Shown: piece by piece, positions 51,350 through 63,898 of the stretch
How the letters are laid out: each line of letters begins with the position of its first letter
Numbering within the stretch: position 1 is the stretch's first letter
Assembly: GCA_040388095.1 (NCBI GenBank)
Contig: JAZKCM010000001.1
Location: 125,820-189,819 of the forward strand
Source: Patescibacteria group bacterium
Lineage (GTDB): Bacteria; Patescibacteriota; Minisyncoccia; Phycocordibacterales; UBA9973
DNA length: 64,000 nucleotides
Direction of reading: 5' to 3'
Made by a program: the position numbers and the translations under genes
The notes under the pieces: model-generated
The model's input: only the letters and a program-made list of their open reading frames with translations
Told to the model about the DNA's origin: nothing
Databases searched by the model: none

Positions 51350-54300
51350 ATGAATAAAAATTTAAGACTTGGCGTTGTATTAGGGAGTTTAATTTCGCTC
51401 GTCGTACTCGGTGTTATCGTTTCTAATAAAAATTTAGGTAATACAAGTAGCCAGCTCGCAAGCCTCGTTGGTCCAACAATTACAAATGTCAAAGTAAGTA
51501 ACATCAGTACAACCAAAGTAAGTATTGATTGGAAAACTGACGTACCAAGCACCACAAAAATAGAAATCAAAAAAGCTTGGACGGTAAGTTGGGTCATTCC
51601 TTCAGGTAGTGGAACTAGCACAAATCTCACCACTGATCATACTGTTGATATCGACAACCTTATTTCGAATACAAAATATTCTTACCGTGTGACTTCTTGT
51701 GAAGACACCATCGGTTGTAAAACATGGACATCAAGCACACGATTCACAACACTCAAAACAACTGGCACTGACCCTACTGATACAGAAAATCCAACAATAC
51801 CGACAAATCTTAATGTCTCAAATATTACACAAACAAGTGCTACAATTTCTTGGACAGCAAGTACAGATGATGTCGCAGTCTCAGGATATAATATCTATAA
51901 AAAAGACACATCTGGCGTTGTTACTAAAAGTAATACTTCCCTAATCACAGGAACGACTTATAATGCAACTGGTTTAACTCCTGGTATTACAAGAAGTTAT
52001 CAAGTGGAAGCAGTAGATACGTCAGGTAAACTTTCTGGATTAAGTAATGCTGTTGTTTTTGCAACAACAGGTGGTGTGACTAGTGACACCACCTCCCCAA
52101 CCTCTCCTACAGGACTTTCTTCTTCAAATATTACACAAACAAGTGCCACAATTTCTTGGACTGCAAGTACTGATAATATTGGAGTTACTGGATACGATGT
52201 GTATGTTGGTGGAATTTTAAAGACTAGTGTTACAAGTACTACTGCTTCTCTTACAGGGCTTACTGCTGGTACTACATATAGTGTTACAGTGAAAGCTAAA
52301 GATGCTGCGGGAAACCCTCCTACTGCGAGTACTGCTCTGTCTTTAACAACCCTATCTTCAATAATAATTCCTCCTGCTGATATGCAAGCGCCAAGCATAC
52401 CAACTTTAACTCTTATTTCAAAAACAGATGTAAGTGCAGCAATACAATGGACAGCAAGTACTGATAATGTCGCTGTTGCTGGTTATCATGTTTATAACAA
52501 TGGAGTTGAAATAGGTAATACATCTACTGCAACTTCAATCACAGCTAATGGCCTTAGTCCTGCAACCACATATAATTTCACTGTAAAAGCTTTTGATACA
52601 GCGACACCAGCAAACTTATCTACAGCAAGTAATATTCTTACTATAACTACAGATGCTTTACATGATGTTACGCCTCCAACAGCTCCAAGCAATTTAACTT
52701 CTTCAAATCTAACTCCACATTCAGTAGATATTGCTTGGACAGCAAGTACAGATAATGTCGGAGTTATCGAATATCAAGTTTATGTAAATGGAACACTTGT
52801 AGGTGGTACAACTTTAGCTACTTCTATACATGCTTCAACTCTTTTCGAAAATACAACATATACTTTTACAATCAGTTCAAAAGACGCAGCAAACAATTAC
52901 TCTCTACTAAGTACTCCTTTAACGATAACAACACCACAAGACAATCCATCTGCACCGACAAATCTAATCCTAATTTCTAAAACCCATAACTCAGCAGCAA
53001 TGCAATGGACTGTTCCCGTAGTAACAGGAGGATTATCACCTATCGCTTCTTATGAAATTTATGTAAACGGTACATTAATAGGATCAACACTTTCTGCAAC
53101 TTCAATCACAGCTAATGGCCTTAGTCCTGCGACCACCTATGTATTCACAGTAAAAGCAAAAAATAGTTTAGGTCATCTTTCATCTTCAAGTAACTCTCTT
53201 TCTGTTACAACAGATACAGCACCCGATACTCAAGCACCAACTGCTCCTACAGGACTCAATGCTCCAGCCACAGAGATTACGACAAATTCTCTCAATCTCT
53301 ATTGGACAGCAAGTACTGACAACGTTGGAGTAGTAGAATATCAAGTATTCAAAAATGGAGTTCTTATTACCGGAACAGTAACAGCAACATCAGTACCAAT
53401 CACCAGCCTTACTCCTGCGACCACATACACATTCACAATCAAAGCAAAAGACGCTGCGGGGAATCTCTCTCCTCTTAGTACTGCCCTTTCAGTGACAACA
53501 AAAACTCCAGCCGACACCACCTCCCCATCAACACCTACAGGACTTACAACTTCAAACATTACACAAACAAGTGCAACAGTTTCTTGGACAGCAAGTACTG
53601 ATAATATTGGAGTTACTGGATACGATGTGTATGTTGGTGGAATTTTAAAGACTAGTGTTACAAGTACTACTGCTTCTCTTACAGGGCTTACTGCTGGTAC
53701 TACATATAGTGTTACAGTGAAAGCTAAAGATCTTGCGGGGAATGTTTCAGTGGCAAGTAATGTTTTGTCTGTGGTGACAGTTAGTGCTGACACAACAGCA
53801 CCGACTATTTCTGCAATTAGTTCAATACCAAATGATACTGGTGTGACGATAACTTGGACGACGAACGAAGCATCTGATTCACAAATCAGTTATGGTTTAA
53901 CGAGCTCCTACGGTACAACAAGTGTCCTCAATACAAGTCTCGTTACATCACATTCTGTCACTGTCACAGGACTCACTTCAGGAACACTCTATCACTATAA
54001 AGTTACTTCAAAAGACGCTTCATTAAATAGTGCTTCATCTGCCGACCAAACATTTACCACGACAACTCCTGCCCCAGTGTGTTTGAATGCAATTACGAAT
54101 CCTGCAGATGGCCGAGATGTCTGGGCATGGCATGGTAACACAGTCCTCATAACACCAAATTCTACTTACCAAAATAATTTCTTTACCTATGCTGATTCAC
54201 ATAAAATACAGACAATATATCTTAATGCAAACGCATCTTTTGTTAATAACAATGCAACAAATATCAAAGACTTCTTAAACAAAGCAAAAACACATTGTAT

Positions 54301-55051
54301 GAGTGTCGAAGCTTTAGGCGGTGCTGAAAATTGGGTAGCACTTCCAGGTAATCCATACTTCACTCAAGGCGCGACAACGACAGCAGCATTGGATTTTGCT
54401 ACAGCAGTAAAAAATTTAAACAATAGTATCACAGGAAATAATGCAAAATTCTCAGCGATACAGTACGATGTGGAGCCTCACACAATCGGTTCGACAGACG
54501 GTTATTATCCATATTATGGATTAAGTGATGCAAACTATACACCATTACAAGCAAACACAGCCATACTAAATGCATTGATAGATATGACTCAAGCAGTAAA
54601 AGCAATCACTGGATCAAGCGTGAAAGTAAATCTTGCTCCACCACGATGGTATGACACTTCAGCTAACCTCAACCCTTTCTCTCGTACAGGAGTTGGAGTG
54701 ACAGGTAAAAATGCAATGGAATATTTATTTGATAATGTTGATATTCTTTCGATTCAGGATTATGTAAATACTGCTAGCAATATTCATGACGATGCAGTCG
54801 GTGAATTAAATTATGCTGCAGCTCATAATAAAAAAGTAAATATTGGAATCCTACTTGATAACAGTGCCCCAGCTTCATCAAACTTCTTTGGTAGTACCTG
54901 TGCAAACCTTAACTCAACACTCCAAGGAGCGTACAACCTGATGACCGCAACAGAGAAAAGTGGCTTTGGTGTATTCTCTATAGAACAATACGATACAGGA
55001 GCTGGTTATACTGCTGGTACACCGAGTTCTTGGACTGGTATGTGCCCATAA
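51350..55051 (+). CDS. Giant surface protein: N-terminal anchor + ~9 FN3-like domains + the same C-terminal domain (paralog B)
   Basis: The W-T-A-S-T-D-N-(V/I)-G/A-V-x-G/E-Y signature recurs about 7 times, plus 2 divergent FN3 domains (VSIDWKTD, VTITWTTNEASDSQISYG). The C-terminal domain runs from VCLNAITNPADGRDVWAWH to SSWTGMCP and contains AIQYDVEPH. Confidence 0.8.
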   Translation: MNKNLRLGVVLGSLISLVVLGVIVSNKNLGNTSSQLASLVGPTITNVKVSNISTTKVSIDWKTDVPSTTKIEIKKAWTVSWVIPSGSGTSTNLTTDHTVDIDNLISNTKYSYRVTSCEDTIGCKTWTSSTRFTTLKTTGTDPTDTENPTIPTNLNVSNITQTSATISWTASTDDVAVSGYNIYKKDTSGVVTKSNTSLITGTTYNATGLTPGITRSYQVEAVDTSGKLSGLSNAVVFATTGGVTSDTTSPTSPTGLSSSNITQTSATISWTASTDNIGVTGYDVYVGGILKTSVTSTTASLTGLTAGTTYSVTVKAKDAAGNPPTASTALSLTTLSSIIIPPADMQAPSIPTLTLISKTDVSAAIQWTASTDNVAVAGYHVYNNGVEIGNTSTATSITANGLSPATTYNFTVKAFDTATPANLSTASNILTITTDALHDVTPPTAPSNLTSSNLTPHSVDIAWTASTDNVGVIEYQVYVNGTLVGGTTLATSIHASTLFENTTYTFTISSKDAANNYSLLSTPLTITTPQDNPSAPTNLILISKTHNSAAMQWTVPVVTGGLSPIASYEIYVNGTLIGSTLSATSITANGLSPATTYVFTVKAKNSLGHLSSSSNSLSVTTDTAPDTQAPTAPTGLNAPATEITTNSLNLYWTASTDNVGVVEYQVFKNGVLITGTVTATSVPITSLTPATTYTFTIKAKDAAGNLSPLSTALSVTTKTPADTTSPSTPTGLTTSNITQTSATVSWTASTDNIGVTGYDVYVGGILKTSVTSTTASLTGLTAGTTYSVTVKAKDLAGNVSVASNVLSVVTVSADTTAPTISAISSIPNDTGVTITWTTNEASDSQISYGLTSSYGTTSVLNTSLVTSHSVTVTGLTSGTLYHYKVTSKDASLNSASSADQTFTTTTPAPVCLNAITNPADGRDVWAWHGNTVLITPNSTYQNNFFTYADSHKIQTIYLNANASFVNNNATNIKDFLNKAKTHCMSVEALGGAENWVALPGNPYFTQGATTTAALDFATAVKNLNNSITGNNAKFSAIQYDVEPHTIGSTDGYYPYYGLSDANYTPLQANTAILNALIDMTQAVKAITGSSVKVNLAPPRWYDTSANLNPFSRTGVGVTGKNAMEYLFDNVDILSIQDYVNTASNIHDDAVGELNYAAAHNKKVNIGILLDNSAPASSNFFGSTCANLNSTLQGAYNLMTATEKSGFGVFSIEQYDTGAGYTAGTPSSWTGMCP

Positions 55052-56396: not shown

Positions 56397-56648
56397 ATGA
56401 TTAAAAAAGTGATTTCTCACGGCATAACACACAAAACACCAGCTGATTTACAGAAAGCTCTTATTTCTGCTCCGAGAGCTCTAGCGATATGGGAAAACAT
56501 TACTCCCCTAGCCCGCAATGAATGGATATGTTGGGTAATATCTGGCAAGAAAATAGAAACGAGGGTTATACGCATTAAAAAAGGAATATCGAAATTAAGT
56601 GGCGGAATGCGCCGCCCTTGTTGCTGGGCTGGATGTATTCATAGATAG
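56397..56648 (+). CDS. YdeI/OmpD-associated (OmdA) domain protein
   Basis: PADLQKALISAPRALAIWENITPLARNEWICWVISGKKIETRVIRIKKGISKL matches the YdeI/OmdA C-terminal domain pattern as I remember it. Confidence 0.65.
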   Translation: MIKKVISHGITHKTPADLQKALISAPRALAIWENITPLARNEWICWVISGKKIETRVIRIKKGISKLSGGMRRPCCWAGCIHR

Positions 56649-56692: not shown

Positions 56693-58642
56693 ATGAAGCA
56701 AAAATATTTTATTTATTTTCTCGCACCTATAGTATTTTTAGGTTTTATTCAAATAGTAAATTCGCAAACAATCGATAGCCAAAAGCTCGATCCTAATCCT
56801 CCAGTAATTACAAACATAAGTGTCACGCCTTTCTCATCTACTTCTGTAATAATCACATGGACTACAGACGAATTAAGTAATTCAAAAGTTTTATATGGTA
56901 AAGGCCGAACCAGCAAAAACGAAATTGATCAAAATGATGTAATTTCGCATTCTATTAAATTAGAAAATTTAGATATTGCTACTGAATATGTTTTTTGCGT
57001 CGAATCACGTGATAAGGTACAAAACATAGGGCAAAGTTGCGACCACACTTTTACTACGAGCACTCCTATTCCAGCTGACACAACTGCACCAATAATTACT
57101 GATGTAATCGCAGAAGATATTTCAACTTCAACAGCCACTATTTCTTGGGTGACAAATGAAATAGCTACAGGCCAAGTAGAATATGGGCTCACATCAACAT
57201 ATGGATTACAAAGTCCATATGATCAGACCCTCAACTTGAATCACTCAATAAGACTAACCGATCTTACAGAAGATACAACTTACCATATACAAGTAGAATC
57301 CAAAGATAATTCTAATAACTCATCAAAATCTCAAGATATTACTTTCAAAACACTTAAGAATGAAATTGTGATTCCGCCTTCCACTGCTCTTCCTATCATC
57401 ACAAATATAACTTCACACAATCAAACATCTTCAAGTGTTTCAATATCGTGGACAACAAACAAAATAACTGATGGCCAGATCGAATACGGAATAAATACAG
57501 ACTACGGAACAACAACAAACTTAGATAGTGATCTTATAAAACATCATACACAAATAATCACTGGACTTGAAGCAAATACTGCCTACTATGCACGAATACA
57601 TTCACACGATAACGAAGGTAATGAAGCCATATCCGAAGACTTTATTTTTCAAACGACGAACGGTACGACCATCACACCTCCAGATGAAAATCCACCACCT
57701 GTCGAAGAACCTGGTGATGGTTCTGATAATGGTTCTGGTGGAGGTGATACCAATACACCTAGAGATGAAAATCCGGCAGATGCAACTACACCAATAAATA
57801 ACACAGAAGGTGTATTTAAAAATGGTTCTGGTACTATACAAATCAATCAAGTATCGGGTGTTACTGCATATGGACTCAATCACACAATTCTTATACTTTG
57901 GAACAAAGCAAATGAAGCTGATCGTACTGGAATTAAAATTGTCCGTAGTAAAGAAGATTATCCAACAAATCCAAACGATGGTGACCTATTGTATCAAGGC
58001 AACGGTATGATATTTAGTGACGTAAACCTAACCAACAATAAGACGTATTATTATTCAGTCTTCGCATATAAAGAAAACTCAATTTATTCAGAACCAGTCC
58101 AGCTCTCTATCGCCCCTGTTGAAGACCCATCAAAATATACTTCAGTTCAAATTGATAATGGAAAAATACAAATACTTACGACTCGTGACTTTGGTCTCGG
58201 TACACGAGGATTTGTCGTTAATTATCTACAGAACCTTCTAGCTTCTGACCCTACCCTATATCCTGAGGGATTGGTAACTGGATATTTTGGACCATTAACA
58301 AAATCTGCAATCATAAGATTCCAAAAAAGACACGGGATACCAGAAACAGGGATAGTCGATGCAAATGTCCGAGCTATCACACGCGACTTAACTGTCCCAC
58401 AAAACGTCAAACCTGAATTATCACCTCGTAGCAATATGTCACTTGGTTCAACAGGTGACAATGTAAAAGTTTTACAGACTGCATTAGTTCAACTTGATTA
58501 TTTAGATGAAACTTTTATTGATGGAAATTTTGGAATAGAAACACAACAAGCTGTACTCAAATTCCAAAAAGATAACAATCTTGTAGTAGACGGAATAGTA
58601 GGACCAGTCACTCGAGCAAAAGCAATCTTGAAAGTGCACTAA
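56693..58642 (+). CDS. Secreted protein: 3-4 FN3-like domains + Pro/Gly/Asp linker + two peptidoglycan-binding (PG_binding_1-like) repeats
   Basis: Signal peptide. FN3 signatures VIITWTTDELSNSKVLYG, ATISWVTNEIATGQVEYG and VSISWTTNKITDGQIEYG. C-terminal repeats GYFGPLTKSAIIRFQKRHGIPETGIVD and GNFGIETQQAVLKFQKDNNLVVDGIVGPVT. Confidence 0.75.
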   Translation: MKQKYFIYFLAPIVFLGFIQIVNSQTIDSQKLDPNPPVITNISVTPFSSTSVIITWTTDELSNSKVLYGKGRTSKNEIDQNDVISHSIKLENLDIATEYVFCVESRDKVQNIGQSCDHTFTTSTPIPADTTAPIITDVIAEDISTSTATISWVTNEIATGQVEYGLTSTYGLQSPYDQTLNLNHSIRLTDLTEDTTYHIQVESKDNSNNSSKSQDITFKTLKNEIVIPPSTALPIITNITSHNQTSSSVSISWTTNKITDGQIEYGINTDYGTTTNLDSDLIKHHTQIITGLEANTAYYARIHSHDNEGNEAISEDFIFQTTNGTTITPPDENPPPVEEPGDGSDNGSGGGDTNTPRDENPADATTPINNTEGVFKNGSGTIQINQVSGVTAYGLNHTILILWNKANEADRTGIKIVRSKEDYPTNPNDGDLLYQGNGMIFSDVNLTNNKTYYYSVFAYKENSIYSEPVQLSIAPVEDPSKYTSVQIDNGKIQILTTRDFGLGTRGFVVNYLQNLLASDPTLYPEGLVTGYFGPLTKSAIIRFQKRHGIPETGIVDANVRAITRDLTVPQNVKPELSPRSNMSLGSTGDNVKVLQTALVQLDYLDETFIDGNFGIETQQAVLKFQKDNNLVVDGIVGPVTRAKAILKVH

Positions 58643-58656
58643 AAGTTATTTTTTAC

Positions 58657-59247
58657 TTATCTACTTTCCCCTTCAAAATTCTGCTCAACAACACCAAATT
58701 GCATTGTCTTTGGGTTAAGTTTTAACCAAATACTTTTTCCAACCGATGGTGCCACAGTAAAACTTTCTCCAGGATTTCTATCTGCATAATTTACAACAAT
58801 AACATTCTGTCTATTGGTTCCATTCGTTGTTTTTCCTTCGTCTATATTAATTGTTTGTGGAGCAATTCGATCTCCCAATAGTACTCCATCTGATCCAATA
58901 GGACCACTTACTGTATCAAGTAACGCTACTACATAATAAAATGTGCCACTACCACCTGTATCTTGTGTTACTAAAAAAACCTTATCTACCCTACCATCTT
59001 CATTTAAGTCATGTTTTAAATCATTACCGAAATATTTAGTAACTATCTTTGAAGCAGAGCCAGGAGCTGCTTCAATTTCTGAAATGCCGTTCTTTAATGT
59101 AATTTTCTGCCCAGCTATCATATATGTACCATCGTGTGAAAAATCCTCTTTAACTGCTTGATTATTAATACTTGTATTATTTTTATATATCGAAAATCCT
59201 ATAATTATCAAAACTATGGCTACCAAAATTACTGATGTTTTTTTCAT
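58657..59247 (-). CDS. Hypothetical secreted protein (196 aa)
   Basis: N-terminal anchor MKKTSVILVAIVLIIIGF followed by a soluble domain. Confidence 0.6.
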   Translation of the reverse strand: MKKTSVILVAIVLIIIGFSIYKNNTSINNQAVKEDFSHDGTYMIAGQKITLKNGISEIEAAPGSASKIVTKYFGNDLKHDLNEDGRVDKVFLVTQDTGGSGTFYYVVALLDTVSGPIGSDGVLLGDRIAPQTINIDEGKTTNGTNRQNVIVVNYADRNPGESFTVAPSVGKSIWLKLNPKTMQFGVVEQNFEGESR

Positions 59248-59337
59248 ATATTAAGTATATACCTATCTACCAAATTACCTAGGACTAAAACAGCATAAAA
59301 AACCTTGACTTGTAAAGTTATTTTAAATACTCTAAAT

Positions 59338-59353
59338 GTGGGACAATGTTCGA
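59338..59353 (+). repeat. Island intergenic motif, copy 1 (GTGGGACAATGTTCGA)
   Basis: Matches GTGGG-N5-T-N-TTCGA, which also occurs at 59891, 61329 and 61891, all in the same orientation. Confidence 0.6.
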
Positions 59354-59374
59354 GTAGCGACTTTGAGTCGGAAA

Positions 59375-59406
59375 TAAAAAAACAGTTCGTTGTAAACGAA
59401 CTGTTT
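59375..59406 (-). terminator. Intrinsic terminator (minus strand) after 59434..59748
   Basis: The rc reads AAACAGTTCGTT-TACA-ACGAACTGTTTTTTT. Confidence 0.75.
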
Positions 59407-59433
59407 AAAATAAACTTTCTTATTCCTTGTTAC

Positions 59434-59748
59434 TTAAAAAACGAAATCTAATCCACCATTTGATGAGCATCCTTTAAGGATCACCAAATCTTTTGGATTT
59501 TTTTCATCTACATACGCTTTCATTTGTGGCAATAGCTCAATACTGTGTTTGAAAGATTTACTACAAATTTTAGGTATAAATATAGCCAATGAACTCTTAA
59601 AAAGATTTTGTGTAGCTTTTTTTCCAAGGCCTTTTCTAAAATAGAATCTTTTAGGAAAAGACATTTTGAAAATGGTCCATAATACTAAATGTGTTATCCT
59701 ATACAGAAAAACAGGAATATTTAAAGTAAAAACAATTATTTTTTTCAT
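59434..59748 (-). CDS. Hypothetical basic protein (104 aa)
   Basis: ORF-track ORF. Preceded by a possible 26-37 aa hydrophobic mini-ORF (59755-59870 region) and a TTGACT-N16-TATACT promoter on the minus strand. Confidence 0.45.
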   Translation of the reverse strand: MKKIIVFTLNIPVFLYRITHLVLWTIFKMSFPKRFYFRKGLGKKATQNLFKSSLAIFIPKICSKSFKHSIELLPQMKAYVDEKNPKDLVILKGCSSNGGLDFVF

Positions 59749-59870
59749 TTTTTAATTATTAAGTTTTTGCATTATTGCTTTTTGAAAACCAGTAAACTGA
59801 CGCCCAAAGAGCAATATGCAAAGCAAAATAACCAAACATATCAAAGAACCTATACTGAATGTAGTATATC

Positions 59871-59910
59871 ATATATAGTCAAAAAGTCAATGCTACGAAC
59901 GTGGGAGGAT
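59871..59910 (+). repeat. Island intergenic motif, copy 2 (40 nt unit)
   Basis: aaaaagtcaatgctacgaacgtgggaggatgttcgaatga is 38/40 identical to 61308-61347. It contains CGAAC-N10-GTTCG and, on the minus strand, a TTGACT -35 box. Confidence 0.85.
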
Positions 59911-59934
59911 GTTCGAATGATTATTTTGGGGAAA

Positions 59935-59966
59935 TAAAAAAAGCCGCTCCTTATTAAAAGCGGCTT
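59935..59966 (-). terminator. Intrinsic terminator (minus strand) after 59987..60613
   Basis: The rc reads AAGCCGCT-TTTAATAAGG-AGCGGCTTTTTTT. Confidence 0.75.
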
Positions 59967-59986
59967 TATAAAATTTCTAAAACTTA

Positions 59987-60613
59987 TTACAAACCACCAA
60001 CAAAAGTACCAGCGCTATAACTCTTTTCTTTACATTTTTCGCAGTAAGCTTTTCCTGGTTGGCAATTGAGTGACCCATCATCTATTCCGATATGCATAAT
60101 TTTACTCATAATTTCTTGTGTAGTTAATTTTTCTCCACAATCGCTACAAATTATCTGCTCAATATTTTTTAATGAGAGTTCTTTCTTTGATTGCATTACA
60201 AAGAACATTGAGTCCTCAAGTAAATGCTTGCGATCGGTATCATTTCTCCACGGCTCAACAAAGAAATTTCCATTTGGATTTTCCCCTGTAGTATAGGTTC
60301 CCTTAGACCATGCATGCACGTGAACCCAATGATAAGTATTATAGAGATCACATTTCCTTAAGAAGAAAAGGTTCTTGCTGGCAAGCGATTTATCTTCCAG
60401 GAAGAATTTATTTTTTGTCATAAGCTCTTCAAATACACCGTGGAAAGAAATAGATTCCAGGGTGACATTATTCGATACAGGAAGATCATTCATGATGTCA
60501 CCATATGTAGAAGGCACAGCATTTTTAATAAGCTTGTAACCTTTTACAGCAATAAGAAGCGATGCTTTGGGTATCTCAAGAGAAAAACCCATTGCTGGTT
60601 GTAAATACTGCAT
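59987..60613 (-). CDS. Hypothetical protein with C-terminal zinc-ribbon (208 aa)
   Basis: Contains CSDCGEKL...CQPGKAYCEKCKEK (a CxxC..CxxC-like pair). The rest is unrecognised. Confidence 0.55.
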   Translation of the reverse strand: MQYLQPAMGFSLEIPKASLLIAVKGYKLIKNAVPSTYGDIMNDLPVSNNVTLESISFHGVFEELMTKNKFFLEDKSLASKNLFFLRKCDLYNTYHWVHVHAWSKGTYTTGENPNGNFFVEPWRNDTDRKHLLEDSMFFVMQSKKELSLKNIEQIICSDCGEKLTTQEIMSKIMHIGIDDGSLNCQPGKAYCEKCKEKSYSAGTFVGGL

Positions 60614-60695
60614 TTTGTTTCAATTTTCCCCTGACTAGCGGAGCGCTAATAAATTAATTATTTTATAGAAGACGTTTATTTAGTTACTTACATTC

Positions 60696-61169
60696 CTATA
60701 AGTAAACCGTAACCCTAGGGATTGATTTTTGAATTGCCCCTAAAATTAGAGAACTGTTGTCCTCTTCTTTATTCATTACTTCTTTCCCCAAACGAAAAGA
60801 AACAGGATTTTTTGTTTCTCTCGCTACTTTATTTAAGCACTCCTGAATAGAAACAGAAGTTTTATTTCGGAGCTTATCGCTCAAATCGTAGCAAACAATA
60901 CCCCAATAGACATGATCCTTTTTCTCAAATTTAATAATATCACCAAAAGTTTTTCTTCCAATTTGAGTTAATTCAGGAATTATATTATAACGAGAAAGGA
61001 ATCCAGCAAAACTCTGTACTGCATCATTTGTATAAAATTGACTACTCAGATCATTGAAGCCACAAGAGAGGTACGTATAGGTACTATCTGTGTTCAACGA
61101 AATGATAATATCCTTATTTAAGGTTAACGCAATCGACTCGATTGAATTATTTTTTTTATGTTCTATCAT
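60696..61169 (-). CDS. Hypothetical protein (157 aa)
   Basis: ORF-track ORF, co-oriented and probably co-transcribed with 59987..60613. No secure family. Confidence 0.55.
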   Translation of the reverse strand: MIEHKKNNSIESIALTLNKDIIISLNTDSTYTYLSCGFNDLSSQFYTNDAVQSFAGFLSRYNIIPELTQIGRKTFGDIIKFEKKDHVYWGIVCYDLSDKLRNKTSVSIQECLNKVARETKNPVSFRLGKEVMNKEEDNSSLILGAIQKSIPRVTVYL

Positions 61170-61307
61170 AATTTTATATTTATTTGTTTATAGTTTATTG
61201 AAACACTCACCCTGGCCTCCAAAAATGAAAAACAAAGCGAGTAATTCAATAAATAAACAAGAGTTGTGAAAGACCAAATACTTTGCTTAAAGTACTATAG
61301 TAAAGAT

Positions 61308-61347
61308 AAAAAGTCAATGCTCCGAACGTGGGAAGATGTTCGAATGA
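61308..61347 (+). repeat. Island intergenic motif, copy 3 (40 nt unit)
   Basis: aaaaagtcaatgctccgaacgtgggaagatgttcgaatga. Confidence 0.85.
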
Positions 61348-61358
61348 ACATAATCAAA

Positions 61359-61880
61359 TTAATTTGCAACTCTTTCTAATTTGATATTTTCATGTGTACC
61401 TATAAAATAGGCGTCTTCACTTTCATCGACATATATAACCGAACCATTTAGTATTTTTCCTCCTCCTGCAATTTGAAACATAAAACAACCAAATCCGAAA
61501 CTATTCCGATCTTTTTCCTTATGAGTAATGCGCACAAAACCATCTTTTATTTCTCCTTCAAAACAATATTTATTTGTATCTATTATTTTTATTTCTTCTG
61601 AGCTAGTACTTAATTTTTGAATAGACTCAACCACCATCTCGCCTTTAACCTTATCACCTGTTTGATTAAGAGTCATATTAAATGTAAATGATTTTGTTTT
61701 ACCATTCCATTTTCCACCAATTAGTGTTGATTTATATTTTTTTGAGAAATACCAAGGTAAAATTATTTTACTGAATAATTTGTCAAAAATCAAAACATAA
61801 CAAACCGTAGAAATAATACCAATAACTATTGGGTAGAAAAAGTACTTTGATAAAAACAGTATCGTCCAATTAATATTCAT
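61359..61880 (-). CDS. Hypothetical membrane protein: N-terminal TM hairpin + beta-rich soluble domain (173 aa)
   Basis: Two hydrophobic helices (ILFLSKYFFYPIVIGIISTVCYVLIF, then a weaker second) are followed by alternating-pattern segments (GGKWNGKTKSFTFNMTLNQTGDKVKGEMVV...FGFGCFMFQIAGGGKILNGSVIYV). Confidence 0.55.
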   Translation of the reverse strand: MNINWTILFLSKYFFYPIVIGIISTVCYVLIFDKLFSKIILPWYFSKKYKSTLIGGKWNGKTKSFTFNMTLNQTGDKVKGEMVVESIQKLSTSSEEIKIIDTNKYCFEGEIKDGFVRITHKEKDRNSFGFGCFMFQIAGGGKILNGSVIYVDESEDAYFIGTHENIKLERVAN

Positions 61881-61890
61881 GCTCGCTCTA

Positions 61891-61906
61891 GTGGGCGACT
61901 TTCGAA
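61891..61906 (+). repeat. Island intergenic motif, copy 4 (GTGGGCGACTTTCGAA)
   Basis: A divergent copy between the divergently transcribed 61359..61880 and 62001..62408. Confidence 0.5.
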
Positions 61907-62000
61907 CTATAAATTGGGTGGACGAATACCATTTCCCTAGTATAGCATTACAGGAAATTAAGTCATTATTGGCTTAAAAAGGCTGAAACATTTTAATATT

Positions 62001-62408
62001 ATGAAAACATCACGACCCACAACTACTCTAAAACAAAAGAAGGTCCTCAAGCTTTTAGGGGAAAATGGGGGAAATTTAAGAAAAGCTATCAAAGAAGCTG
62101 GCTACTCTCAGAAGTATGCTGATAACCCTCAAAGACTAACTACTACACAAACATGGCAAGAAATTACAGACGAGACATTCCCTGACGCATTACTAGCCCT
62201 TGTGCACCGTAAACTTTTAGAAAATGAATATACAGCACTTAAAGCACTCGACCTCGCTTATAAGCTCAAAGGAAGATACAAGGAAGCTGAAAAGCCAGTG
62301 CTCGAGAATAAGCAAATCATAGTTGAGATAATGCACTATGGAGACAGGAACAAAGAAAAGAAAATAATAGAGGAAGAAGTAGCTCACGCTCTTAAGTCAG
62401 ATGACTAA
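62001..62408 (+). CDS. Phage small-terminase-like HTH protein (135 aa)
   Basis: N-terminal KQKKVLKLLGENGGNLRKAIKEAGYSQKYADNPQRL resembles the HTH region of small terminase / Terminase_2-type proteins. Translationally coupled (ATGA overlap) to the next gene. Confidence 0.45.
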   Translation: MKTSRPTTTLKQKKVLKLLGENGGNLRKAIKEAGYSQKYADNPQRLTTTQTWQEITDETFPDALLALVHRKLLENEYTALKALDLAYKLKGRYKEAEKPVLENKQIIVEIMHYGDRNKEKKIIEEEVAHALKSDD

Positions 62409-62790
62409 ATTAAACACAAAACAAGAATTATTTTGTAAATTATACTCTGGTCCTAGAGAGTTCTTTGGAAATGCGACTCAGTCTTACATTGAAGCATACA
62501 AACCAGATCAGAAACCTAAAAACTGGTATAAATCGGCTCAAGCCTCTGCGTCTCGATTGTTATCAAATGTTATCATTTCTGAGCGTATTAAGGAGTTGTT
62601 TGAAGAGCTGGGGCTGACTGACAAGATGGTTGATACTGAATTGGCTTTTGTAATAATACAGAGAAAAGATCTTGGAGCTAAGATACGTGCAATAGCTGAA
62701 TATAATAAGATCAGGCAACGTATAGAAATAAAAGAATACGAGGTCCCTGTAATAACAGGAATGCAGATTATTTATGAGGGAAAAGAATAA
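62401..62790 (+). CDS. Phage terminase small subunit (Terminase_2/P27-like)
   Basis: KQELFCKLYSGPREFFGNATQSYIEAYKP...KSAQASASRLLSNVIISERIKEL matches the KQxLFxxxY...GNATxAY...AxxxASRLLxNVxV signature of Terminase_2 as I remember it. Confidence 0.65.
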   Translation: MTKLNTKQELFCKLYSGPREFFGNATQSYIEAYKPDQKPKNWYKSAQASASRLLSNVIISERIKELFEELGLTDKMVDTELAFVIIQRKDLGAKIRAIAEYNKIRQRIEIKEYEVPVITGMQIIYEGKE

Positions 62791-62821: not shown

Positions 62822-63898
62822 TTATTTACCTCTAGCAATATCTAATTGCAACTGTTGTTCTTCCTCCCATTCTTCAGCTGCTCTGATTATAAAAGACTCT
62901 ATCATTTCAAGTGGAGTGTTAAGCCGTTCGTAAGTTCTTAACGTTTCGTGCATATTTTTAGAATTTTTAATCTTTTGAATACTACTCTTTAACTTTATAA
63001 AAGTTGTAAATCTTATATTTGGAGTAAAATTTGTTCGAGCTTTTAAATTTTCTGTCTCGAGGAGACCCATCTCTTTTTGAAAGTCAGTCTTACTAATTGA
63101 TTGGTCATGAATTTTATATCTTAGCCCATACAAGCGTTTCGTCAGTTCCTTAAATTCGTTCGTTTGTTCGAATTCATACATTTTAAACAAAAAATCTAAA
63201 TCCTTGTCTTTATTTTTAAGTTCTGGTAAGTCGTATTCAATCATTCGATCAACTTCTTCTAGACGATTCTGTAGATCAAAAGCGAGATCATTTTTTACTG
63301 AATTTAAAGAAACCCTGATGCCTTTACTGACTTTCAAAACAACCACTTTTGAAAAATCTCGATAATTTACATGATTACCTGAAATATATCTAGATGCCCA
63401 TGATGGCGTACCATTATAGTATGCACTATGTCCCTTATTTTGAAGTCTCACAAAAAAATCACATACAACCTGAAAAAGTATTTTTGCAAAGACTATTATA
63501 GTTTCAGGATTGTGTTCATCATTATGTTGAGCACCATTCCTATAAGAATGACATATTGTAACTATTGTTTCTTCCTTTTTTGTAAGCTTTTTTATTTTTT
63601 TTCTTAAAACTTTAATTTTTCCTTGAATGCTATCTTTTGCGTCAGAAATTTCTTTTTCCGAGAACTCTGGAGGCATGATTCTCATTGTAAATTCATCATA
63701 ACTAAATTTTGAGAGACAATATCTGTGCATGAGAATATCTATTAAGTTATCTAGAAGTATAATTGCCATCCTTGATTTTAAAGGGCTTTTTGATTTAATT
63801 AGCTCTGAAGAAACTTCAAGTTGTTCAATAATTAGGGCTAGTTTTTCGTCACTATTTTTTGTGTAATCAAATTTCGACATATTATTTAAAGTATTCAA
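62822..63898 (-). CDS. HEPN-like protein with Rx4H motif (358 aa), possibly Abi-type
   Basis: Helical protein with CHSYRNGAQHNDEH (R-N-x-x-x-H). Size is similar to AbiD/AbiF-type HEPN proteins. Convergent with the terminase-like genes. Confidence 0.5.
   Translation of the reverse strand: MNTLNNMSKFDYTKNSDEKLALIIEQLEVSSELIKSKSPLKSRMAIILLDNLIDILMHRYCLSKFSYDEFTMRIMPPEFSEKEISDAKDSIQGKIKVLRKKIKKLTKKEETIVTICHSYRNGAQHNDEHNPETIIVFAKILFQVVCDFFVRLQNKGHSAYYNGTPSWASRYISGNHVNYRDFSKVVVLKVSKGIRVSLNSVKNDLAFDLQNRLEEVDRMIEYDLPELKNKDKDLDFLFKMYEFEQTNEFKELTKRLYGLRYKIHDQSISKTDFQKEMGLLETENLKARTNFTPNIRFTTFIKLKSSIQKIKNSKNMHETLRTYERLNTPLEMIESFIIRAAEEWEEEQQLQLDIARGK

Follow-up and report, generated by a model that had tools for sequence, protein, structure and literature searches.

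A conserved 26-nt intergenic motif as a probable arm of large serine recombinase attachment sites in same-orientation gene arrays of Patescibacteria

Small genes and motif copies in the window

The window, i.e. the whole 64-kb stretch of DNA that was analysed, contains a series of small minus-strand genes separated by copies of a short motif, hereafter called motif A. On the plus strand the pattern GTGGGA-NN-ATGTTCGA occurs exactly at 59338, 59901 and 61328 (n = 3), compared with 0.17 occurrences expected by chance; at least three occurrences were seen in 0 of 100 shuffles, and the three copies are clustered inside 2 kb of the 64 kb. Written on the gene strand, motif A reads AT-TCGAACATC-N-TCCCAA-GTTCGGAGC. 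An earlier note on this DNA had described four same-strand copies under the pattern GTGGG-N5-T-N-TTCGA. The spacing of that pattern is wrong and yields 0 matches, the scans reported here used the corrected spacing, and the positions given for copies 2 (59891) and 3 (61329) were off by 10 and 1, respectively. Three of the four copies are exact, whereas the fourth (61891) is divergent, one base shorter and fails both the pattern and the matrix scan; translation of the plus strand nonetheless identifies it as a relative belonging to another subtype of this element. Copies 2 and 3 have a 40-nt unit in common, which was recovered at 59881–59920 and 61308–61347, and the repeat search stretches it to 47 nt at 89% identity. 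Both of these copies contain the inverted repeat CGAAC-N10-GTTCG and adjoin a minus-strand TTGACT, as had been described; copy 1 is without the inverted repeat.

Read in the direction of the genes, the first of the four copies is copy 4, which together with the sequence after it on the plus strand (61882..61977, +) is a long-type 3' fragment of a large serine recombinase (LSR) gene (LALVGDFRTINWVDEYHFPSIALQEIKSLLA*), the translation of which can be aligned in frame to native C-terminal extensions of LSRs, e.g. P0027 LPLVDKFRAVNWRVIERELQFSQIFSLLKC. Directly past this junction lies the start codon of a cassette gene (61359..61880, −) for a 173-aa protein with a hydrophobic N-terminal stretch and without family match. 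Copy 3 (TCGAACATCTTCCCACGTTCGGAGCA, 61318..61343, −) reads LRTWEDVR on the plus strand, directly followed by the tail MNIIKLICNSF* (61344–61379, +), and has its TTGACT at 61312–61317. Between copies 3 and 2 there is a two-gene unit (ORFs at 59987..61169, −; 157 aa and 208 aa), and a Ca. Nomurabacteria genome has a 63%-identical homologue of the 157-aa protein inside one motif array. Past the second gene of this unit (59987–60613) on the minus strand, and past the recombinase-gene fragment on the plus strand, lies the terminator-like hairpin T1 (59940..59967, −). The fragment ends in the tail codons and stop MIILGK* (59917..59937, +), which correspond to the string GGAAATAA of the earlier note. 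Copy 2 itself (TCGAACATCCTCCCACGTTCGTAGCA, 59891..59916, −) again translates as LRTWEDVR on the plus strand and is a putative P'-type LSR half-site; a tblastn search with the LSR C-terminus gave a match at 59893–59928. Immediately past copy 2 there is a promoter-like site (TTGACT, 16 nt, TGATATACT; 59863..59890, −), and this promoter-type flank is also found after tRNA-Asn in other genomes (L146, L152, L156).

The unit between copies 2 and 1 consists of a gene for 104 aa (59434..59748, −). Ahead of copy 1 the hairpin T1 is again terminator-like (59380–59406) and follows, on the plus strand, the recombinase-frame tail VATLSRK* (59354–59377, +). Translation marks copy 1 (TCGAACATTGTCCCACATTTAGAGTA, 59328..59353, −) as decayed, its plus strand reading L*MWDNVR. 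The final unit past copy 1 encodes 196 aa with a signal-peptide-like N-terminus (58657..59247, −), and this gene is probably leaderless since TATACT lies 6 nt before its ATG. The string GGAAATAAAAAAA followed by a hairpin was seen past copies 1 and 2, as noted previously. The proposed minus-strand order of gene, terminator, motif, promoter and next gene is found at these same two copies; copy 3 has no terminator ahead of it. Over 156 copies, the motif consensus carries a T-run at positions −30 to −12.

None of the five cassette proteins of the window had a match in Pfam, PHROGs or PADLOC. The 64-kb window contains no recombinase gene and no tRNA-Asn, and linkage to an LSR gene is not found inside the window; a search of it for recombinases matched only 12 C-terminal residues at each of copies 2 and 3. 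Four putative junctions are present in the window (three short-type, one long-type), each pair one to two small genes apart.

Motif A and the 3' end of a large serine recombinase gene

The reverse complement of motif A encodes LRTW(D/E)DVR, a short tail and a stop codon, which is the C-terminus of a conserved LSR. In five loci (L150, L225, L131, L183, L236) a convergent LSR gene reads through the reverse-complemented motif and ends in ...LRTWDDVR plus 4–9 aa. The LSRs that read through the motif, L284 also, carry Resolvase and Recombinase (and Zn_ribbon_recom) domains, and real LSR genes end in the same type of tail (MSLL*, MSLIK*, KVIIEEK*) as the window copies. The free positions of the motif (0, 6, 9, 15 and 18) are third codon positions in the recombinase frame. 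The third-position pattern fits one sense-strand frame equally well; the antisense frame was chosen because it is the one used by real genes. Recombinase-frame stop codons are present in copy 1 of the window and in 19 of 267 copies.

LSR relatives are alike as far as ...PNW and diverge beyond. Among 71 metagenome LSR loci with sequence past the gene, the gene runs into antisense tRNA-Asn in 31, into tRNA-Gln in 3 and into tRNA-His in 1, and the remaining loci have a native extension (LPLVDKFRAVNW...) with in-frame alignment to LRTWDDVR. In the LSR islands the neighbours of the recombinase are an HTH_17 gene and a type III restriction-modification pair. When motif flanks were searched with a profile for the 3' end of the recombinase, gene remnants were detected in only 3 of 254, and most units are therefore without any trace of the enzyme; for the same reason we rejected the idea that the hairpin and a second motif (motif B) after A arose by decay of recombinase coding sequence.

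Distribution across genomes

The earlier note had proposed a search of related genomes for cassettes bounded by the motif. Our scan of species genomes yielded 118 stretches with the motif, compared with about 4 expected, nearly all of them from Patescibacteria, and the near-invariant 26-mer is kept in more than 100 species genomes. The matrix scan gave 295 copies, with 0 in shuffled sequence. In all of the multi-copy loci (73/73) the copies lie on a single strand. Neighbouring copies are a median of 847 bp apart, roughly the length of one small gene, and arrays comprise up to 10 junctions within 8 kb. Most copies are intergenic (137/156). The cargo of the arrays includes NYN, Fic, NUDIX, HIT, glyoxalase-like, toxin-like and restriction-modification proteins and many unknown small proteins. 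Viral contigs were covered by two scans, of which one gave no match and the other only single matches at chance level. Literature searches did not turn up an account of the motif or of these arrays.

Different species share units at 92–99.5% identity, and homology is lost exactly at the edge of motif A; such breaks in between-genome homology are seen at both edges, although at the edges of a universally conserved 26-mer they are also expected from homologous recombination or from lost alignability. No clean presence or absence of a motif-bounded unit was found among the species representatives, where the one candidate between collinear flanks lay away from the motif. With its position at the seams of single-gene units and in same-orientation arrays headed by tRNA-Asn, and with homology breaks at its edges, the motif bears out the earlier suggestion of a recombination site of a cassette system.

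tRNA-Asn at the head of arrays and the geometry of the putative attachment sites

tRNA-Asn accounts for 27 of the 39 tRNAs in motif loci, and in 24 of the 26 loci containing it, it is located on the motif strand upstream of the array, i.e. at its head. One type of flank follows both tRNA-Asn and motif A (92% identity over 95 nt within L186), with motif B at a constant 49–50 nt in this common flank. At the junction A and tRNA-Asn have only GAGC(C) in common. From TTCGA to the end of GGAGC the distance in A is 26 nt, and to the end of the matching GAGC at the 3' end of tRNA-Asn it is 21 nt. In serine integrases the position of the zinc-ribbon motif is shifted between attP and attB (PMC3783163), and the +5 bp offset of TTCGA between A and tRNA-Asn matches this reported shift.

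The repeats of the arrays are not copies of the tRNA 3' end, as A has 6 nt inserted and 1 nt deleted relative to tRNA-Asn. We likewise rejected a true tRNA 3' half, since the T-stem could not pair and the loop would be 10 nt. A true repeat is found only in tRNA-type islands, as in L239, where a 19-nt repeat of the tRNA-Asn 3' end is present at both ends. Outside the window, the motif is linked to the edge of LSR genes. The distal motif that A and tRNA-Asn have in common is displaced by 5 bp. Elements bounded by a recombinase-side junction and by a far junction with the other arm were found in L206/L225 and L239. The former locus has the order tRNA-Asn, LSR1, motif A, LSR2, which places a second element at the far junction of the first. 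Altogether, a recombinase element lies precisely in an A junction in L206/L225, L236, L143 and L284.

Proposed origin of the arrays

From the coding of an LSR C-terminus, the 5-bp offset, the tRNA-Asn at the head of the arrays, the common flank and the homology breaks, we consider it probable that motif A is one arm, an attL-type junction, of the attachment site of a Patescibacteria-wide LSR family, and that far junctions were reused into same-orientation arrays. The crossover would lie inside the recombinase gene, right after the codons for ...P-N-W. In the un-integrated attP form, the gene would run on through L-R-T-W-D/E-D-V-R and a few residues to a stop and a terminator. Integration, mostly at the 3' end of tRNA-Asn, would sever a gene tail of about 70 nt, which would end up at the far end of the island, beside the sequence formerly 3' of the tRNA. 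On the strand of tRNA and cargo, the far attL-type junction would read terminator T1, tail codons and motif A, then the former tRNA flank, a promoter and the next gene. As this junction resembles tRNA-Asn plus its flank, it could be used again as a landing site, and its reuse would give rise to arrays of one orientation. If another junction were chosen during excision, entire units would be lost or gained, which may be why near-identical single-gene units are found in unrelated contexts of different species. Tandem attL-type junctions, each with its own tRNA flank, do not arise from standard serine-integrase chemistry alone. The cassettes may still be mobile.

The same modules could instead be passive scars, inert leftovers of integration whose boundary modules of about 100–130 nt (tail, A, tRNA-type flank, promoter) act as homology arms, with units being swapped by homologous recombination after DNA uptake and no site-specific enzyme taking part. 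This would agree with the length and similarity of the modules in L186, with the lack of a recombinase near most arrays, with breaks at both edges of A, as if it were just a conserved island of alignment, and with the recombinase-frame stops in copy 1 and in 19 of 267 copies. We nevertheless regard it as rather unlikely. The 26-mer is near-invariant in more than 100 species, and its changes cluster at synonymous positions, for which a recent origin from working recombinase genes is a better fit than neutral decay; recombinase elements also sit precisely in A junctions in the loci named above.

The earlier note had also considered an operator. Taken as an operator or activator site, CGAAC-N10-GTTCG just upstream of the −35 box would be bound by a dimeric regulator in control of the island promoters. 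The repeat does adjoin TTGACT in copies 2 and 3 and HTH proteins are encoded close by, but the motif is not fixed with respect to the core promoter, as in different genomes it lies anywhere from 0 to about 15 nt away from the −35 box. In 52% of copies what comes next is a terminator-like hairpin instead of a promoter, and 24 copies are flanked by convergent genes. Moreover, conservation of the 10-nt spacer equals that of the arms, the repeat is missing from copy 1, and the top protein clusters of the 118 motif loci include no recurrent HTH family, among them none of the terS-like proteins suggested as binders, so that we judge an operator highly improbable. The same low probability is assigned to the third role raised in the earlier note, a structured RNA, which would be either a 3' UTR hairpin whose loop is C-rich or a small RNA that stops at the next terminator. 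The loop contains UCCC, a terminator often comes next, and the frequent changes of GTTCGG to GTTTGG and of T0 to C keep G-U/G-C pairing on the gene strand only; these one-sided changes are, however, equally explicable as synonymous or conservative codon changes. For the six stem pairs, 173 distinct sequences gave 2 compensatory doubles compared with 124 mismatched cells, the loop is conserved to the same degree as the stem, and no Rfam match at the gathering score or at E ≤ 10 was found over the motif. A mimic of the anti-Shine-Dalgarno sequence, with CCUCC in the loop, was discarded as the position that makes CCUCC is freely variable. Least likely is a selfish repeat of the REP/MITE type or an integron attC, for all that the motif is short, partly palindromic and intergenic, lying past gene ends in same-orientation arrays of small genes. 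The units have their own promoters, and the motif is common to many species and clustered, where a REP/MITE would be species-specific, dispersed and of high copy number. Sites of attC type have an imperfect palindrome inside and boxes of the consensus RYYYAAC (R'') and GTTRRRY (R'), which TTCGAAC and GTTCGGA both break, so that the earlier note was right to set the motif apart from attC. Of the protein clusters found in the 118 loci, the 20 that recur most include no tyrosine integrase, and the recurrent recombinase is a serine enzyme.

Comparison with known systems

Read as an LSR attachment-site arm, motif A resembles the serine-integrase sites of phiC31, Bxb1 and A118/LI in its associated enzyme (Resolvase, Recombinase and Zn_ribbon_recom domains), in having a proximal and a distal motif, the latter displaced outwards by 5 bp in the element-type arm compared with the host-type arm, in the short crossover identity (GAGC) and in the recombinase gene adjoining the site. 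Here, unlike in those systems, the predicted crossover lies within the recombinase frame, so that integration would swap the last 10–35 residues of the enzyme; the main target appears to be the 3' end of tRNA-Asn, and the hybrid far junction is apparently reused. Composite SCC arrays (CcrAB/CcrC at rlmH) likewise involve LSRs, tandem insertions at one chromosomal site, same-orientation repeats of the integration site between units and many units without a recombinase of their own. In contrast to SCC, the anchor is a tRNA instead of rlmH, units are mostly of a single gene and about 0.85 kb, and the repeat is a fragment of a recombinase gene.

Integron arrays (IntI, attI, attC) also consist of small, mostly single-gene units in one orientation with a recombination site at each unit end, carry diverse accessory cargo and share the same cassette among unrelated arrays. 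They differ in that here the enzyme belongs to the serine recombinases, conservation of the site is at the level of sequence and not of a single-stranded fold, the R''/R' boxes are not matched, units bring promoters and terminators of their own, and the array is anchored at a tRNA instead of attI. The tandem accretion of islands at tRNAs and the cis-mobilizable elements (CIMEs) of ICESt-type elements of Streptococcus thermophilus are similar in that islands are stacked at a tRNA 3' end with direct repeats between them, and recombinase-less units flanked by att sites could be mobilised by a related element. Those systems, however, use tyrosine integrases and repeat the 3' end of the tRNA itself, whereas motif A is a look-alike from a recombinase gene, expanded by 5 bp. 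The pdif modules of Acinetobacter plasmids (XerC/D) share the one-to-few-gene modules, the short conserved recombination sites and the occurrence in many contexts; the pdif sites, for their part, are targets of the host's Xer tyrosine recombinases, alternate in orientation and have no link to tRNAs.

Implications for Patescibacteria

Patescibacteria are host-dependent bacteria with tiny genomes, and little is known about how they gain and exchange accessory genes. In combination with tRNA-Asn and a single recombinase family, the 26-nt motif provides a conserved landmark for variable gene arrays in hundreds of uncultured genomes, and single-gene units with 92–99.5% identity across species are evidence of exchange. 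Since the crossover would lie inside the recombinase gene, the target site would complete the enzyme. The recombinase family may also supply serine integrases whose natural attP/attB pair is defined. Only tentatively, and with the chances rather against it, do we suggest that the arrays form a working 'serine-recombinase integron', anchored at tRNA-Asn, with single-gene cassettes that each end in a copy of the C-terminal coding segment of the recombinase and are taken up, lost and traded between species as the recombinase pairs alternative attL-type junctions on excision. The cassette beside the enzyme gene would then provide the final residues, the stop codon and the terminator. Active arrays of this kind would represent a second, mechanistically independent invention of an integron-like cassette-array system.

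Motif A in the window and across Patescibacteria

The repeat noticed earlier in this Patescibacteria MAG is real: GTGGGA-NN-ATGTTCGA occurs in three exact copies on the plus strand of the 64-kb window, at 59338, 59901 and 61328, compared with 0.17 expected by chance; 0 of 100 shuffles gave as many. Relaxed searches of the window gave no further copies. The earlier note had described a repeated same-strand motif, which holds for these three copies, but the spacing in its title was wrong, that pattern giving 0 matches, and two of its copy coordinates were slightly off. The 40-nt unit common to copies 2 and 3, the minus-strand TTGACT abutting the motif, the GGAAATAAAAAAA strings and the terminator-like hairpins it had reported are present. 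Because all genes neighboring the window copies lie on the minus strand, we read the motif on this strand, as a 26-nt repeat called motif A.

The cassette gene at 60696-61169 has a 63%-identical homologue in a Ca. Nomurabacteria genome, which carries the motif three times, intergenically and in gene sense. A scan of one genome per species with a degenerate 24-nt pattern matched 118 stretches (L-numbers), compared with about 4 by our own estimate of chance, nearly all from Paceibacterota, Nomurabacteria and related MAGs. The motif has the consensus AT-TCGAACATC-N-TCCCA-A-GTTCGGAGC-A, and the positions left free by the search pattern are almost invariant too, with the exception of position 9. 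A weight-matrix scan of the motif loci yielded 295 copies, compared with 0 in shuffled sequence. All copies share one strand in 73 of 73 multi-copy loci, with as many as 10 copies within 8 kb and a median spacing of 847 bp; 137 of 156 copies are intergenic, and the median position is 66 nt past the same-strand gene and 78 nt ahead of the next. Matches were also noted on contigs labelled Smithella, Gammaproteobacteria, Woesearchaeota and Methanomassiliicoccales (L119, L159, L168, L182). L119 is probably mis-binned, because it is 99.5% identical to the Patescibacteria contig L148, and the match in L182 lies within a long ORF and is probably due to chance.

Proteins flanking the motif are small and very diverse, every family being found in at most 12 loci. 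The YdeI/OmdA family is second most recurrent (12 loci) and large serine recombinases (LSRs) are third; other recurrent cargo comprises NYN-domain proteins (12 loci), Fic/DOC, NUDIX, HIT, peptidase S51 and glyoxalase-like proteins.

Motif A and the 3’ end of recombinase genes

In L150, L225, L131 and L183 the motif is overlapped by a convergent LSR gene, and the proteins (4/4) end in ...LRTWDDVR plus 4-9 residues. The reverse complement of the motif reads CTC CGA ACT TGG GAN GAT GTT CGA; its variable positions 0, 6, 9, 15 and 18 are third codon positions, with Thr as ACN (all four bases), Asp/Glu as GAN and Arg as CGA/CGC/CGG, and the semi-conserved stretch ahead of the motif corresponds to tail codons, stop and terminator. 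The window copies translate on the plus strand like LSR C-termini: L*MWDNVRVATLSRK* in copy 1 (decayed), KKSMLRTWEDVRMIILGK* in copy 2, DKKSMLRTWEDVRMNIIKLICNSF* in copy 3 and LALVGDFRTINWVDEYHFPSIALQEIKSLLA* in copy 4, a divergent, long-type relative.

Relatives of the L225 enzyme number more than 1800, at 67-98% identity for the best 120; they are conserved up to ...ASPFNLVLELAxxPNW and carry divergent tails beyond. Of 80 metagenome loci, 71 extend past the LSR gene, which there runs into antisense tRNA-Asn (31 loci), tRNA-Gln (3), tRNA-His (1) or motif A (1); TGG in ...NW is the CCA of the tRNA. The other 35 have either sequence that looks like a tRNA-Asn 3’ end or a native extension, LPLVDKFRAVNW...; the latter can be aligned in frame to both LRTWDDVR and window copy 4. 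This alignment and the tRNA read-outs point to a crossover inside the LSR reading frame, at NW|L, with motif A as the putative element-side arm beyond. Motif A itself resembles the tRNA-Asn 3’ end, TTCGA(T/A)C...CCCAAG...CGGAGCC, its distal TTCGA lying 26 nt from the GGAGC end versus 21 nt from the matching GAGC end in tRNA-Asn. In serine integrases the zinc-ribbon-domain motif is placed 5 bp further out in attP than in attB (PMC3783163), and the two TTCGA spacings have that 5-bp outward shift.

The LSR gene is the last in a module of HTH_17, type III methylase, ResIII and LSR. Such conserved islands, with a type III R-M methylase and a ResIII helicase-restriction subunit, span 4988-11557 in L236 and 5227-11542 in L239; res shares 4 nt with the recombinase gene. 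Many Patescibacteria carry the module at tRNA-Asn, where its integration swaps the C-terminal residues of the recombinase for antisense-tRNA-encoded ones.

tRNA-Asn anchors and junction flanks

tRNA-Asn heads the arrays, and the junctions carry copies of its flank. It makes up 27 of 39 tRNAs in motif loci, and in 24 of 26 loci it shares the strand of the motif and precedes the array. Motif A and tRNA-Asn have like flanks: ...GAGC, a hairpin (T2), tACCtt..TAG.A-GTTCGAACC (motif B) and a -10 box, with an ATG 6-8 nt past it. The hairpin follows 52% of 246 copies versus 10% of random positions, motif B lies at a fixed 49-50 nt in 29% versus 6%, and TTGAC within 45 nt in 17% versus 2.5%. Within L186, the 95-nt sequences downstream of tRNA-Asn and of A share 92% identity and the genes differ; L146, L152 and L156 have the TTGACTTTT flank of window copies 2 and 3 behind their tRNA-Asn as well. 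That the flank is decayed recombinase sequence is ruled out, as a recombinase 3’-end profile matches only 3 of 254 flanks. A flank common to A and tRNA-Asn and not derived from the recombinase argues that each A|flank is an attL-type junction, element arm joined to host flank.

In L206 and L225 the order is tRNA-Asn | LSR1 ... A | LSR2: the second element sits in the far junction of the first, which has hence been used again by at least one further element. In L239 a 19-nt stretch of the tRNA 3’ end is repeated at both ends of a tRNA-type island. At the far end of a tRNA-Asn island in L239, two near-identical terminator hairpins (AAAATTGCC....GGCAATTTTTT; 1781-1825 and 2040-2075), 259 bp apart and each followed by GGGCTCCGT, form a miniature tandem junction.

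Motif B is an 8-bp palindrome, GTTCGAAC(C), with tACCtt..TAG.A ahead and an extended -10 box directly downstream, and looks like a degenerate tRNA T-arm; its fixed distance of 49-50 nt applies past tRNA-Asn as well as past motif A. Examples were seen in L118-L235 (L232 ~2090-2185, minus; L138 2489-2580), and none in the window. Past the copy-2 and copy-3 promoters a short hairpin over the -10 box (TATACTACATTCAGTATA) is followed by GGTTCTTTGATAT or GGTCTTTCACAAC (window 59838-59862 and ~61263-61292, minus; L115 9293-9330) and a 5’ UTR of ~115 nt. These strings, which we take to resemble rrn/lambda boxA antitermination boxes, are conserved in L118, L133, L137, L138, L204 and L226, with similar ones after tRNA-Asn in L146 and L156.

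Layout of the window locus

Read 5’ to 3’ along the minus strand, the locus comprises the long-type fragment (61977-61882), a gene (61880-61359), copy 3, two genes (61169-60696 and 60613-59987), a terminator-like hairpin (T1) and copy 2, a gene (59748-59434), T1 and copy 1, and a gene (59247-58657), all genes being on the minus strand. Many unit genes appear leaderless, having a TATAAT-like box 6-8 nt ahead of their ATG and lacking a Shine-Dalgarno sequence; for the last gene listed, box and start codon read TATACT-TAATAT-ATG (59247-59262, minus). A YdeI/OmdA-family gene (56397-56648, plus) adjoins the array, whose downstream border holds two large secreted-looking proteins (51350-55051 and 56693-58642, plus) with many fibronectin-type-III-like repeats, the second ending in peptidoglycan-binding domains.

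Neither a recombinase nor tRNA-Asn was found in the 64 kb. At least a HEC-01B defence-type gene, described next, lies past them, and we predict the recombinase and tRNA-Asn further out in the same direction. Two adjacent terminase-small-subunit-like HTH genes (62001-62790, plus) are followed by a 358-aa protein without family match (62822-63898, minus) and, just past the window end, a DUF4276 protein (L321 256-945; PADLOC candidate defence family HEC-01B, E = 1.4e-79); these may belong to the interior of an island that carries a recombinase.

Modularity and growth of the arrays

Where units are 92-99.5% identical between species, their homology stops precisely at the 5’ edge of A (L119/L148, L154/L186, L144/L160); in other pairs it stops directly past GGAGC (L197/L213, L139/L176). 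In L129, L142 and L191 a variable stretch containing A (1.5, 2.4 and 5.4 kb), with no tRNA-Asn in view, is framed by common syntenic housekeeping flanks and may represent a second kind of hot spot.

An operator is rejected on three grounds: a promoter spacing that is not constant, copies placed between convergent genes, and conservation of the ‘spacer’. A structured RNA is rejected as well, with 2 compensatory changes versus 124 mismatched cells and no Rfam match, and so are attC and REP, whose defining features are absent. The comparisons identify motif A as a putative recombinase-gene-derived arm of an LSR site, an attachment-site arm at cassette seams. It is a variant akin to serine-integrase sites, tRNA-anchored accretion and SCC-like or integron-like arrays; our literature search found no description of motif A cassette seams.

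With motif A as an LSR-site arm, arrays would grow by repeated integration into tRNA-Asn or an A|flank, and on excision the recombinase-side junction would pair with a nearer or farther A|flank, so that whole units are shed or captured. The main rival of this route is homologous recombination that uses the boundary modules of ~100 nt, which could yield the same pattern. Shedding and capture would explain the recombinase-less arrays, an array head with its tRNA|flank restored, the common orientation of the copies and the shared units with breaks at A.
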